Source: a virus
Lineage: Duplodnaviria; Caudoviricetes
DNA length: 64,000 bases
IMG/VR virus record: IMGVR_UViG_3300014208_000024
Coordinates: 32,001 to 96,000 of that record
Reading direction: 5' to 3' (one strand)
This document shows, piece after piece, positions 1,606-45,736 of the stretch. Below the pieces are notes generated by a model. It did not search any database. It was not told the DNA's origin and saw only the letters and a list, made by a program, of their open reading frames with translations. The translations under genes were made by a program, and so were the position numbers. The first letter of the stretch is position 1. Every line of letters begins with the position of its first letter.

Positions 1606-1732
1606 AAAGGGGTATAGAATAAACAGGTTGTCTTGGTTGCAAATCCTGGAGTTTAACCAGGACCCATTGAACTAAAGTCAATTGCTCTACACAGAGCTAA
1701 TTTGCGAAGTAACTGTCTAAATTGCCACCTTT
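1606..1732 (-). ncRNA. Y-RNA-like element Y1 enclosing an intact tRNA-like body with UUA anticodon
   Basis: Family stem GGTGGCAAT...AGTTACTTCG; inner cloverleaf ending ACCA. Confidence 0.7.
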
Positions 1733-3354: not shown

Positions 3355-3392
3355 TACGCAAATATATAAAAAAAGTTACATTAAAAGCAAGT
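3355..3392 (-). promoter_or_regulatory. Class I (probably early, host-RNAP) promoter TGTAAC-N-TAnnTTTGCGTA (representative of about 18 copies)
   Basis: Related motif near 5275, 7773, 10300, 10520, 19770, 23670, 25510, 27265, 27777, 30490, 32392, 33670, 38075, 40988, 42338, 45633, 48740; core resembles the Bacteroidota -7 element. Confidence 0.7.
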
Positions 3393-6371: not shown

Positions 6372-7100
6372 ATGGAAACTAAAATATGCTCTAAATGCCA
6401 TGTTGAAAAACCTAATGATGAAGATTATTTTCCTAAAAGGAATAATAAGCTTGAATATAGATGTAAATCATGTCGTAAAGAATATTACGATATATGGAAA
6501 TTTAATAATGCAGAAGCTAAAAAACAATATGATAAAGATTATAGAGCTAAAAATTATGATAAACTTAAAAAATACACAAACGAATATAATGAAAATTTTC
6601 TATATAAGAACGGTGTAAAACGCCATACAAAATACTGGCAAAACAACAAAGAAAAAATAAAAACAAGAAGAGAGAAAAACAGAAATAATGAAAATATATT
6701 AAGGAACAAAAAAAGGAATGAGAGGCGAAAAGTTGACCCATTATTTAATCTACAAGAAAAAATAAGAACAAAACTTAACAAATTGTTTAAAAACAATGGA
6801 TATAAGAAAAACAAAAAAACAATTGATGTTATTGGATGTTCGTTTAAAAATCTAAAACTATATATAGAATCTAAATTTGAATCTTGGATGAATTGGGAAA
6901 ATCACGGATTATATAATGGACAGTTATATTATGGTTGGGACATAGACCATGTTATTCCATTGTGTACTGCTAAAACAGAAGAAGAATCTTTAAAATTATG
7001 GTATTATACAAATCTCCAACCTCTTTGCAGTAAAATAAATAGAGATATTAAAAAGGATAAAATTAATTTTAACTGTGCAGCAATTTTAAATTTCCCTTAA
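6372..7100 (+). CDS. HNH-like homing endonuclease
   Basis: CSKC...CKSC; WDIDHVIPL...YYTNLQPL. Confidence 0.8.
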   Translation: METKICSKCHVEKPNDEDYFPKRNNKLEYRCKSCRKEYYDIWKFNNAEAKKQYDKDYRAKNYDKLKKYTNEYNENFLYKNGVKRHTKYWQNNKEKIKTRREKNRNNENILRNKKRNERRKVDPLFNLQEKIRTKLNKLFKNNGYKKNKKTIDVIGCSFKNLKLYIESKFESWMNWENHGLYNGQLYYGWDIDHVIPLCTAKTEEESLKLWYYTNLQPLCSKINRDIKKDKINFNCAAILNFP

Positions 7101-7753
7101 ACACCTGTTTAAGGCTTGCTTTTTTCCCTGTTATATGGTCATGTACCAAATCGCTTTTAAAAGTATACATTCTTCTTTTATCTCCCCTAAATCCAGTTCC
7201 AATCTGTTCTTTTCTTTCTCTATGCTCTTTTTCTTTTTTATTAGAATCATATAGTTTTTGTACCCTTCTTGTCAATTCTTTTAGGGCAATTTCTTTGTTT
7301 TTTAGTTGACTTCTATCTTCATCACATCTTACTACCAGTCCAGTGGGAACATGCTTTAAATTCACACAAGAATAGGTGCGATTTCTTGCTTGTCCACCTG
7401 GACCTGTCCCATTTGTGATTTTAATTTCCACATCACTATCCTTTAGTTGGATTTTTACTTGTTGCCCAGGCTCCATTACAGCCACAGTGACTGAACTAGT
7501 GTGAACTCTGCCTTTTGATTCTGTTGGTGGAACACGACTAAACGTATGACCTCCAGCTTCATTTGAAAAGAATTTTTTTACGCCAGCACCGCTAAAGACA
7601 TAAAGAAATACATCCATCTTTCTCTTCTAAAGTAGAGATGGAAAAATTTTCAACCCTGGCCGCTTTTCTATAAACATCAGCCAAATCTTTTGCAAGAAGT
7701 TTTGAATCCATTCCTCCTTCTGCTGCACGAATTTCACAAATAATTGTTTCCAT
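7069..7753 (-). CDS. prfA: RF1-type peptide chain release factor (no domain 1), two ORFs joined by a +1 frameshift at CUU-UAG-C (7597..7591)
   Basis: EIRAAEGG (frame 0); VPPTES PxT motif and GPGGQ motif (frame +1). Confidence 0.85.
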
Positions 7754-10250: not shown

Positions 10251-10370
10251 ATTTTTTATCAATATTTTAAAGAACGTATCTTACTTAATTTTCTACTCTA
10301 TACGCAAAGATAAGAAAAAAGTTTCAAAAAAACAAGTTTTTTTTATTTTTTTTTTAAAAAACTTTTTTTA

Positions 10371-19713: not shown

Positions 19714-19862
19714 CTTTATTATGTTTTTATATTATTAAATATCTCAAAAAAAATTGTTTTCACAGATTCATACGCAAAGTTACAAAAAAAGTTACATAAA
19801 AAACAAGTTTTTTTCAAAGTTTTTTTAAAATATTTTACAACTTGTTGATTATTAAACTATTA

Positions 19863-40949: not shown

Positions 40950-41033
40950 AACATTAATAAATATACAAAAAAATTCTTTTTTCAATCTATACGGCAAATA
41001 TATAAAAAAGTTACATAAAAACCAAATTATTTT

Positions 41034-42073: not shown

Positions 42074-42251
42074 TTTTCATATTCTTTTATTTGCAAGAAC
42101 AAAACTTGGTTTTCCCAGGCAAACTGAATTGTTTTTGTGTTAATTCTTTCTGTAATTTGTGCACTCATATTATATTTTTAAAACAATATAAAAAAAAATC
42201 CCCCCAAAATCAAGAGATTTCAGAGGAATTTTAGAAACGAAACGAAACGAG

Positions 42252-42324
42252 CCCGACCAGAGGGATTCGAACCCACAACCATCTGTTTTAGGGACAGTTG
42301 CTCTGCCAATTGAGCTATGGAAGG
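42252..42324 (-). tRNA. tRNA-like gene with CUA (amber) anticodon, degenerate acceptor
   Basis: CTGT-CCCTAAA-ACAG; two acceptor mismatches, C33. Confidence 0.55.
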
Positions 42325-43290: not shown

Positions 43291-43335
43291 AATAAAATTT
43301 TAATTTAAGTTATAACCGCACAACATGTGCAATCG

Positions 43336-43409
43336 AAGGAAAGACAGGACTCGAACCTGCGACCAAATCGGTTCTAGAAACCGTTGCTCTGCCACTGAGC
43401 TACATTCCC
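43336..43409 (-). tRNA. tRNA with CUA (amber) anticodon
   Basis: CGGT-TTCTAGA-ACCG; canonical D and T arms. Confidence 0.7.
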
Positions 43410-43759: not shown

Positions 43760-44209
43760 TTATTCGTTTATCATTCCAAACTTATCAAAGTACTTTAAAG
43801 GTCTCATTTTTTTACCTTTCACATAGAATCCCCATTTATGATAAGGTCTTCCACAAAACAATATTGTCCAGGCACCTTCTTTTGGTATTTCCAAATAGTG
43901 TTTTTTCTTTGCATCTGCAAACCATAGCCTCCATGCAGTTGCTTTTATTTTTCTACAATTATTCACATCTGGATTATCTGGATCATTTGGTACAACATTA
44001 TAATACCAACCCTTCAATATCATTGAAATAAGATTACAAGAATGATCATGAAAAAATCTTTTATCATCTGATCTTATCCATTTATGAATCCTTATAGAAT
44101 AATTAAAGAAAATAAATGACCACCTAATAAGGTATGGGTTATTTTTATCTTCACCCATTTTTTCAGCCCATCTTATTTGAAAGGTTTTTAATTTATTGTA
44201 CGGTTTCAT
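43760..44209 (-). CDS. Cupin-like phage protein
   Basis: FHDHSCNLISMILKGWY...KKHYL...WTILFCG. Confidence 0.6.
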   Translation of the reverse strand: MKPYNKLKTFQIRWAEKMGEDKNNPYLIRWSFIFFNYSIRIHKWIRSDDKRFFHDHSCNLISMILKGWYYNVVPNDPDNPDVNNCRKIKATAWRLWFADAKKKHYLEIPKEGAWTILFCGRPYHKWGFYVKGKKMRPLKYFDKFGMINE

Positions 44210-44636
44210 CTTTTATTGCTATTAATTCCATTTCTACTAATAAATCACTTCTACAAAGTTTTGCTTCTACACAAACTGAAGCTGGATAAGCTTTTAAACC
44301 CATTTCTTCATAAAATTTCTTTCTTATTATATTAAATTCTTCATAATCACGATCAATATCTCGAAGATATATTGTTGTTTTTATCACATTCTTCCAACTT
44401 ATCCCTTCGTTTTCTAAAATTCCAGTGATATTTTTAAACATTCTTTCAGTTTGTTTTTTAAAATCTCCTTTATATAATGTGGACCCATTTTCTCCAATAC
44501 TTGCTGTTCCAGATATAAAAAACATTTCTGTATCATGTTTAATTTTTACAGACATTCCTCTACTGAAAGCTGAAGGTTTCTCATAATTATAAGCCTCTAG
44601 CATTGTTGAACTTTTTAACTGTTTCATAATATACAT
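44193..44636 (-). CDS. RidA/YjgF/Rut family protein
   Basis: FISGTASI...VIKTTIYLRD...PASVCVEAKLCR.DLLVEMELIA. Confidence 0.88.
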   Translation of the reverse strand: MYIMKQLKSSTMLEAYNYEKPSAFSRGMSVKIKHDTEMFFISGTASIGENGSTLYKGDFKKQTERMFKNITGILENEGISWKNVIKTTIYLRDIDRDYEEFNIIRKKFYEEMGLKAYPASVCVEAKLCRSDLLVEMELIAIKDETVQ

Positions 44637-44880: not shown

Positions 44881-44998
44881 TGTGCTACACATTGTTTTTT
44901 TACATGTTTTGCAAACTTTACTCACAAACAACTACAGCTGATTGTTGTTTGCTTTCATCATTCACTCCACAATCTGAAACGTGTTAAGCAGCCATTTG

Positions 44999-45067
44999 TA
45001 GGCGGAGATGGATACGAACCACCAATCTTCTATTCGAAGATAGACGCTTTACTTAAGCTACCCGCCT
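44999..45067 (-). tRNA. tRNA-like gene, 6-nt anticodon loop CTTCGA (Arg UCG-like)
   Basis: AGGCGGG/TCCGCCT acceptor; TCTAT/ATAGA stem. Confidence 0.55.
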
Positions 45068-45103
45068 GGGCTTTTCCAATACGTCAAAGAACTTTTTCTT
45101 TTG

Positions 45104-45156
45104 TCGGGGAGAAAGGACTCGAACCTCTCGCTGCAACCATTATTTGCATTTCCCCG
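45104..45156 (-). ncRNA. Anticodon-arm-less tRNA-like RNA
   Basis: CGGGGA/TCCCCG acceptor, single TGCAA/TTGCA arm, T-arm. Confidence 0.6.
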
Positions 45157-45204
45157 TGGTGCTGAGAAGGGGATTTAAACCCCCTGCATCACTAAAGACT
45201 CAGC
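45157..45204 (-). ncRNA. Acceptor/T-arm minihelix ending ACCA, overlapping the Pth2-like stop codon
   Basis: GCTGAG/CTCAGC-ACCA; GGGG-TTTAAAT-CCCC. Confidence 0.6.
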
Positions 45205-45588
45205 GTTTTTATAACTATTTTTATCTATTAAACCATTTAAATTATTTTCTTTTAGGGCACAAGGTAAATTCCTACACACCCTTTTTGATTCATCGGATGG
45301 TTCTAAAGCAATAGCCGTAACTTGATTGTCAATATCAGGCTCTCTAAAGATGGAAATAGTAATTCCCCTTGAGTGAGCTTTTTCAATCAAGAACAACATT
45401 TCTTTTTCGTCTTTTACAGACAAATACGCTAAATAATTGGAATTTTTGTGCCAGGAGTTGGCGATGTTATTGTGTTCTAAACAAAATTCAGCTAAAGCGT
45501 GGCCGCCTTGTACAGCTTGATAAGCAGTGGTCAAATCTCTTCTGACAACCACTATTAATTTTGCATTATTCTCAACAATCTATAACAT
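45175..45588 (-). CDS. Pth2-like peptidyl-tRNA hydrolase with in-frame UAG at codon 3
   Basis: VVRRDL...QAVQGGHA...FREPDIDNQVTAIAL; upstream in-frame ATG TTA TAG ATT GTT. Confidence 0.8.
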
Positions 45589-45736
45589 AACTTCTTTTTT
45601 AATAAATATTCAAAAATTTTGTTTTCTACCAATCTATACGCAAAGATATAAAAAAAGTTACATAAAAAGCAAGAAAAAATAGTTTTATTTTACAACTTTT
45701 TATGTAACTCTTTGATTTTCAAATATAAAAATTTAT

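Follow-up and report, generated by a model that had tools for sequence, protein, structure and literature searches.

A Pth2-like gene on the minus strand of a large phage genome opens with the codons AUG-UUA-UAG. The same arrangement, in which a start codon and very few sense codons are followed by an in-frame amber codon, is deeply conserved among phage homologues and is linked to genes for tRNAs with the anticodon CUA. We conclude, with a probability of roughly two in three, that AUG 45588 is the translation start and that the phage's own tRNA(CUA), apparently carried on the same transcript, is required for synthesis of the full-length protein. The source virus contig (372,283 bp, 29% G+C) was recovered from a groundwater metagenome and is rated complete by CheckV. 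The window, i.e. the whole stretch of DNA that was analysed, is 64,000 nucleotides long and corresponds to bases 32001-96000 of this contig.

The Pth2-like gene probably starts upstream of the annotated GTG codon

The database gene call on the contig (P0001, 125 amino acids) begins at GTG 45552. Read on the minus strand, aaaaaagaagtt is followed by ATG (45588-45586), TTA, TAG (45582-45580), ATT GTT GAG AAT AAT GCA AAA TTA ATA and then the GTG (45552-45550), after which the codons GTT GTC AGA AGA GAT TTG continue in a single frame to the TAA at 45177-45175. A sequence-only reading of this locus had placed the start of the gene at the upstream ATG, as AUG-UUA-UAG in frame with the remainder, and this proposal matched the sequence exactly. 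The start codon, one sense codon and in-frame amber codon that constitute the proposed gate span 45580-45588 (minus strand), an assignment based on reading the sequence and on conservation in homologues. The body of the Pth2-like protein, consisting of codons 4-137 and the TAA stop, spans 45175-45579 (minus strand) and was identified with Pfam (PF01981), AlphaFold2 and Foldseek.

Both domain and structure comparisons placed the beginning of the protein ahead of the GTG. The Pfam PTH2 match begins at K10, three residues ahead of this codon, and the first beta-strand, KLIVVVR, likewise starts three codons ahead of it. As this strand comprises K10-R16 in the AlphaFold model, a start at the GTG (codon 13) would cut it. 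The GTG is also not kept as a start codon, since it is replaced by GTA or ATA in the nearest relatives (L001, L004, L005 and L007); initiation at GTG 45552, the outcome that the sequence-only reading had named as contrary to its proposal, is thus not favoured by the comparison. Most of the variation in codons 4-12 among the five closest sequences falls at third positions. We saw no RNA structure at the gene of a kind that stimulates read-through (z = -1.5).

The encoded protein has a Pth2 fold with an altered active-site region

Read-through of the UAG would yield a product of 137 residues. The Pfam PTH2 model (PF01981) matched residues 10-101 of this product with 39.1 bits against a cut-off of 23 (E 9.9e-10). 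An AlphaFold2 model built from 26 homologues had a pLDDT of 87.7, and its best Foldseek matches were archaeal Pth2 (2zv3, 3erj, 1wn2 and 1xty) and human Bit1 (1q7s), with a probability of 1.00 and target-normalised TM scores of 0.69-0.78. A profile search against Pth2 chains of the PDB gave E-values of 2e-6 to 5e-3. From these data, membership in the Pth2 fold and family is firm.

Catalysis by Sulfolobus solfataricus Pth2 is attributed to the DAG-motif Asp and to a Lys in the GKGK loop. When the profiles are aligned, the column of this Asp pairs with E83, an invariant residue in an EPD motif of the phage protein. Neither the lysine loop GKGK nor another loop of four residues is present in the phage protein, and a conserved C-terminal tail has been gained. 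Because the active-site region differs from that of archaeal Pth2, a general role as peptidyl-tRNA hydrolase is in question, and the phage protein is best regarded as a putative hydrolase.

The early TAG is conserved and in frame among distant homologues

The closest relatives of the gene are 75-87% identical to it, and a scan of IMG/VR contributed 80 further loci with 43-56% identity to the query. The nearest database relatives begin M-L/F-Q-I-V, and their contigs yield such proteins only when TAG is translated as Q. At the DNA level, ATG-NNN-TAG was present in every locus fetched by identity, including those in which the gene had been called from a later TTG or ATG. Taking all distinct homologues together, ATG, zero to four sense codons and TAG are found in frame directly ahead of the strand KL.V[IV]TRRD in 62 of 77. 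Homologues therefore retain the TAG rather than a sense codon, and the early amber codon on which the sequence-only reading had staked its proposal withstood this comparison.

A control count was made with the 75 distinct homologues that had 60 nt upstream of the conserved strand. Among mini-ORFs of the form ATG-(0-4 codons)-stop, TAG was the stop in frame 0 in 62 cases and in frames 1 and 2 in none; TAA was found in 8 cases over all frames and TGA in none. The early in-frame TAG is not due to chance. A stop at codon 3 that was seen alone would look like a pseudogene or an assembly error. However, the early TAG is present in dozens of independent assemblies as well as in cultured phages, and the ORF downstream is intact, conserved and confidently folded. 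As conservation of the TAG already refutes a broken gene, the likelihood that the stop reflects damage or misassembly is negligible.

In a maximum-likelihood protein tree, the TAG-less state needs only two changes, which indicates that the TAG is ancestral and has been retained across lineages that are 43-56% identical to the query. One change gave rise to a well-supported clade of 14 sequences that is sister to L011 (ATG ACG TAG ATG); within this clade L060 reads ATG ACG ATG, as though the TAG codon had been deleted. The other change concerns one long-branch sequence with an early TAA. Where relatives have no TAG, the equivalent position is occupied by Q, K or T. In L091, ATG and seven codons are followed by TAA (ochre) where others have the amber leader.

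The early TAG also occurs in the uncultured phage genomes LR756500-LR756504 and LR745206 (462-735 kb). Of the cultured phages, Tenacibaculum phage pT24 (L105, NC_049383, 194.1-195.0 kb) has ATG AAA TAG ATA. The annotated start of the pT24 coding sequence, HYP10_gp293, lies downstream of the conserved first strand and misses the leader; the protein of this phage is a fusion of the Pth2-like domain with a C-terminal region of ~200 amino acids. In Bxz1-group mycobacteriophages a promoter-like site, TTGACA-17-TACTGT, is followed six bases on by ATG TAG GTG, and genes of this group (e.g. L098, Bxz1 gp154) are annotated from the GTG that follows ATG TAG. The early TAG was absent from the homologues of Lak-A1 and Stenotrophomonas phage RAS14. 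A search of GTDB returned three matches, two of which (L139 and L141) are on ~425-kb contigs filed as Pacearchaeota and Thermoplasmatota MAGs. These contigs look like mis-binned huge-phage genomes; one of them equals the phage genome G002 in length.

Relatives that have Shine-Dalgarno sites carry GGAG 5-9 nt upstream of the leader ATG. Among 66 genes, the base 3' of the TAG was A in 47 cases, G in 15 and C in 4, and it was never T. Amber suppression in E. coli is favoured by a purine 3' of the codon; the purine after the UAG could equally stem from a conserved Ile or Val residue.

The sequence around the TAG also bears on whether the leader might be a regulatory mini-ORF that operates without read-through. 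In this case AUG-UUA-UAG would terminate and only tune ribosome loading, and the enzyme would be made by re-initiation or from a non-canonical start (AUU 45579 or GUG 45552). AUU is a known weak start codon in bacteria, and no codon follows the TAG more often than ATT (32 of 66); moreover, L011 has ATG and the Bxz1 group has GTG, its annotated start, directly after the TAG. However, about half of the lineages have a non-start codon at this position (GTA, GTT, AAC, GGC, ACT or CTT), and 52 of the 62 TAG-bearing genes contain no ATG, GTG or TTG between the TAG and the conserved first strand. Re-initiation needs no frame match, yet the frame is kept in 62 of 62 genes and out-of-frame mini-ORFs were not found. 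It also explains neither the invariable choice of TAG over TGA as the stop nor the linkage of the gene to tRNA(CUA). We consider re-initiation an unlikely explanation of the leader.

A related possibility is that the two-codon ORF acts like the lambda bar minigene and yields dropped-off peptidyl-tRNA, the substrate of the enzyme, such that the gene would sense or feed this pool and read-through would be secondary. The leader has the bar-type form, the product has the Pth2 fold, and work on E. coli minigenes (PMC2490762) indicates that very short ORFs favour drop-off over termination. The resemblance is confined to form. The leaders contain zero to four sense codons and are always in frame with the enzyme, whereas a stand-alone minigene needs no frame match. 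Furthermore, the codon before the TAG varies among homologues (Thr, Lys, Leu and Ser codons), although minigene effects depend on the tRNA for the last sense codon. The active-site loop of the product is unlike that of characterised Pth2, and no step joins drop-off to raised enzyme output. As the primary function of the leader, minigene activity is quite improbable, but it is compatible with an amber gate and the two could coexist.

TAG-bearing genes are linked to genes for tRNA(CUA)

The sequence-only reading had cited amber tRNAs at 42252 and 43336, and both proved to be real by ARAGORN and the Rfam tRNA model. The tRNA(CUA) at 43335-43409 (minus strand, 55.5 bits) is of the amber suppressor type, with the canonical anticodon loop UU-CUA-GA. 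The second tRNA(CUA), at 42251-42324 (minus strand, 50.2 bits), has C33 (loop CC-CUA-AA) and two mismatches in the acceptor stem, features of this tRNA that count against the gate. U is near-universal at position 33 of tRNAs. The C33 loop CC-CUA-AA recurs in eight distinct relatives, which argues for a conserved subtype rather than decay.

The genome contains 46 tRNA genes, 30 of which are in the window, and the window set includes the two tRNA(CUA) and one tRNA(UUA). The latter, an ochre-reading tRNA at 1634-1706 (minus strand), lies inside a His/Asn/Thr tRNA cluster; a tRNA(UUA) is also found near the Pth2-like gene of L087. A comparison of the tRNA(CUA)s with the 46 tRNAs of the phage revealed no clear nearest tRNA that would point to their amino-acid identity. 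A pyrrolysine system was considered and rejected. The architecture of tRNA-Pyl includes a tiny D-loop and lacks G18G19 and T-psi-C, whereas both tRNA(CUA)s have ordinary GG D-loops and GGTTCGA T-loops; 'Pyl' is the ARAGORN label for a CUA anticodon. We also rejected an amber initiator tRNA that would start translation at the UAG, since the Shine-Dalgarno spacing fits the ATG and neither tRNA has initiator features. Initiator tRNAs are marked by three G-C pairs in the anticodon stem and by a C1-A72 mismatch, both of which are missing from the two tRNA(CUA)s.

ARAGORN identified a tRNA(CUA) inside the fetched flank of 47 of the 62 TAG-bearing genes, mostly downstream on the same strand and often adjacent. 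In Bxz1, Cane17 and IkeLoa the tRNA(CUA) lies 250-300 nt downstream of the gene. The flanks of many of the remaining TAG-bearing genes were truncated, and five apparent exceptions were searched genome-wide. A canonical tRNA(CUA) was found a few kb from the gene in G002, while the CUA tRNA-like genes of G006 and G007, which are also near the gene, have odd D-arms and were missed by ARAGORN. A likely tRNA(CUA) candidate lies ~100 kb off in LR756504, and LR745206 has only a doubtful one. Save for LR745206 with its doubtful candidate, no fully searchable TAG-bearing genome was without a tRNA(CUA) candidate. By comparison, 11 of 15 TAG-less genes had no nearby tRNA(CUA), and the TAG-less genes that do have one are those of L060, L070, L089 and L090. 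Since some TAG-less lineages keep tRNA(CUA) while TAG-bearing genomes have candidates, the dependence appears to run from the TAG to the tRNA; the four lineages with tRNA(CUA) but without the gate imply that this tRNA has other roles. The link between the gene and the amber tRNAs that the sequence-only reading had suggested is consistent with this near-universal association.

In the GC-rich TAG-less clade (L034, L045, L047, L056, L061, L069 and L094), the place of tRNA(CUA) is held by tRNA-Glu(UUC) and by tRNAs with 8-nt anticodon loops, AUUUCAAC and ACUUCAAG, both of which contain UCA. A search of this clade for an early TGA or quadruplet codon gave nothing convincing.

The gene and both amber tRNAs are probably co-transcribed

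A 26-nt promoter-like box, TTTATGTAACTTTTTTTATATCTTTG, which ends in a TAnnTTTG-type element, is located at 45641-45666 (minus strand) and is a putative promoter. The window contains four matches to this box, against zero expected, at 3359-3384, 19775-19800, 45641-45666 and 10305-10330, and a near copy is present at 40995-41026 (minus strand). The first three matches and the near copy are all on the minus strand and lie just 5' of tRNA clusters. The shared form, TTTATGTAACTTTTTT(T)ATATNTTTG, stands at the head of each tRNA operon and of the Pth2-like gene. In its TAnnTTTG end the box is similar to promoters of Bacteroidota, a hint at the host.

Three tRNA-like elements follow on the minus strand. 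A tRNA-like minihelix at 45153-45203, with an acceptor stem, a T-arm and an encoded ACCA, overlaps the last codons of the gene; it was recognised by reading the sequence and has no Rfam match. A second tRNA-like element, at 45097-45152, lacks a D-arm and consists of an acceptor stem, an anticodon-like arm with the loop AUAAUGG and a T-arm, as judged by sequence reading and conservation. Both elements are kept with compensatory changes in L001, L004 and L007, and they may be processing signals or substrate mimics. An unusual tRNA with a 6-nt anticodon loop, CUUCGA, is found at 44998-45067 (ARAGORN; Rfam tRNA, 50.4 bits). Between the gene and the amber tRNAs there are also a RidA/L-PSP family ORF at 44193-44636 (minus strand; PF01042, E 3.6e-22) and, in the same putative transcription unit, a 149-amino-acid ORF at 43760-44209 (minus strand) that matches a PHROG labelled cysteine dioxygenase (phrog_4786, E 4.8e-28).

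A consensus scan identified a putative terminator, a hairpin followed by a T-run, past the second tRNA(CUA) at 42195-42232 (minus strand). From the box to where the tRNA(CUA) genes end, the minus strand had no other terminator-like site, except for a hit that is just the T-arm of the tRNA(CUA) at 43335-43409. With a shared box and the sole real terminator-like site past the second tRNA(CUA), the region is probably one transcription unit, whose transcript would contain the gene, the three tRNA-like elements, the two small ORFs and both amber tRNAs.

The phage uses the standard genetic code outside the Pth2-like gene

If TAG had been reassigned genome-wide, as in code 15, the early TAG would simply be read as sense in a recoded phage. 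Several homologues are indeed translated with TAG as Q by gene callers, suppressor tRNAs are present, and three relatives encode a full-length RF2 (SPF motif) in place of the RF1-type factor. In addition, LR756501 (L099, 735 kb) has a second in-frame TAG within its Pth2-like gene. The genome as a whole does not behave as recoded, however. ORFs of at least 100 amino acids cover 88% of it under the standard code versus 90% with TAG as a sense codon, a gain that is smaller than the gain with TGA as sense, and TAG is the terminator of 37 of its 465 ORFs. All other TAG-joined long frames that were examined proved to be two adjacent genes, and neither another credible in-frame TAG in the genome nor conserved in-frame TAGs in its structural genes were found. 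In the flanks of relatives, too, the gain with TAG as sense was no greater than that of the TGA control. Code 15 is recognised by many in-frame TAGs, with coding density restored only when TAG is sense, and by a phage RF2 beside the suppressor tRNA; the genome showed neither, and its sole release-factor gene is RF1-type. From these data we conclude that the phage uses the standard code outside the Pth2-like gene and is not recoded, which makes reassignment a very unlikely reason for the early TAG.

ATG-x-TAG was found at the start of 5 of 46 ORFs bounded by TAG in the genome, versus 18 of 358 for the corresponding pattern with TAA and 4 of 61 with TGA. A genome-wide start pattern of this form was rejected: the remaining four ORFs have an ATG 1-9 codons past the TAG, so that only the Pth2-like gene stands out. 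A second stop (TAA or TGA) directly follows the terminator in 6 of 37 TAG-ended ORFs versus 29 of 428 ORFs ended by TAA or TGA (p = 0.049), a marginal sign that back-up stops protect phage ORFs against amber read-through.

The release-factor gene at 7069-7753 (minus strand) encodes an RF1-type protein with PPT and GGQ motifs but no domain 1. Its N-terminal 53 codons end in TGT CTT TAG C, and coding resumes in the +1 frame. The sequence-only reading had seen in this gene a UAG read-through gate parallel to that of the Pth2-like gene. The parallel is inexact, since CUU-UAG-C has the sequence of a prfB-like +1 frameshift site, albeit with UAG, and a frameshift would take the place of read-through.

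A model for amber-gated expression

From the arrangement of the gene and its tRNAs we infer that the UAG is read through in the infected cell. Ribosomes would begin at AUG 45588, decode UUA and reach the UAG at codon 3, at which point RF1 action or drop-off of the short peptidyl-tRNA would leave only a dipeptide. Insertion of a residue by the phage tRNA(CUA) would instead lead to the full 137-residue Pth2-fold protein. The tRNA would be supplied from 1.8-3.3 kb downstream on the same strand, apparently by the same transcript, and enzyme output would track the ratio of amber-suppressor activity to RF1 activity. The placement of the UAG one to five codons past the start is probably functional. 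According to PMC2490762, shortening the ORF of E. coli minigenes from 8 to 2 codons slows termination by release factor and increases drop-off. We propose that slow termination on very short ORFs would give the suppressor tRNA a kinetic advantage and that failed attempts would be cheap.

Other observations weigh against the gate. Strong suppression should be costly to a phage with 37 ORFs that end in TAG, and an RF1-type factor encoded by the phage would oppose read-through.

Amber gating could serve several purposes. Hydrolase capacity might be matched to the load created by suppression, the enzyme might act as a sensor or limiter of the suppressor via feedback on it, or expression might be timed to the output of the tRNA operon. 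A broader proposal, which we put forward tentatively and regard as rather doubtful, is that the Pth2-like gene and its linked tRNA(CUA) form a self-contained read-through controller in standard-code phages. The enzyme would be made in proportion to suppression and would feed back either on the suppressor, whose aminoacyl or peptidyl form it would hydrolyse, or on ribosome complexes that result from suppression; together with the RF1-type frameshift gene, it would set the reading of UAG in the infected cell.

PTH2 genes in jumbo phages have been noted previously, with no mention of the early TAG or of the tRNA linkage (PMC7824862). A full-text literature search for Pth2 or peptidyl-tRNA hydrolase in connection with phage suppressor tRNAs or early amber codons found no published description. 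Suppressor tRNAs are frequent in large standard-code phages, and the cassette described here offers a concrete and conserved target for them: one gene family whose translation does not get beyond the first five codons without decoding of UAG. If the model is correct, this would be a natural switch run by a tRNA rather than by a protein or a small molecule, with a bearing on the takeover or monitoring of host translation by phages. As cultured phages carry the cassette (Bxz1-group phages of Mycobacterium smegmatis and Tenacibaculum phage pT24), it is directly testable. In practical terms, Pth2-like genes with an early TAG are now annotated with wrong or truncated starts.

Comparison with known systems

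The phage protein shares its fold with archaeal and eukaryotic Pth2 (PF01981), to which it has a family-level match, and differs from them in E83, the lost loops and the added tail. The leader resembles the lambda bar minigenes in having a two-codon ORF followed by a stop. Very short ORFs are described as poor in termination and prone to shed peptidyl-tRNA, the substrate of Pth (PMC2490762). The bar minigenes (AUG-AUA-stop) are free-standing ORFs with UAA or UGA as the stop; the phage leader, unlike them, is in frame with a conserved enzyme in every case, is always ended by UAG and is paired with tRNA(CUA).

Autoregulation of prfB, the gene for RF2, provides another example of an early in-frame stop in a translation-factor-like gene at which decoding sets the output. 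In prfB the stop is passed by a +1 frameshift that senses the gene's own product, whereas in the Pth2-like gene the frame is unchanged, a separate tRNA would decode the stop, and no action of the product on UAG is known.

In code-15 phages (crAss-like and Lak phages, with TAG as Gln), a phage tRNA(CUA) likewise decodes in-frame UAG in phage genes, and control of expression through the timing of suppressor availability has been proposed, which is the same idea as that put forward here. Unlike in those phages, TAG is a normal stop elsewhere in the present genome, and the early TAG is limited to one gene family, in which it lies one to five codons past the start and is linked to the tRNA. The release factor here is RF1-type and not RF2, and the Lak-A1 homologue is among those that lack the early TAG.

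The locus has two hallmarks of programmed read-through, namely a conserved in-frame stop with conserved coding sequence beyond it and a cognate decoder in the form of two same-strand tRNA(CUA) genes. A conserved in-frame stop is shared with viral read-through in Q-beta (A1, at UGA) and MuLV (gag-pol, at UAG), known cases that are read through at some frequency. In these viruses host tRNAs are used and read-through adds a C-terminal extension to a complete protein. In the Pth2-like gene, by contrast, the stop precedes essentially the whole protein, and the virus itself supplies the tRNA.
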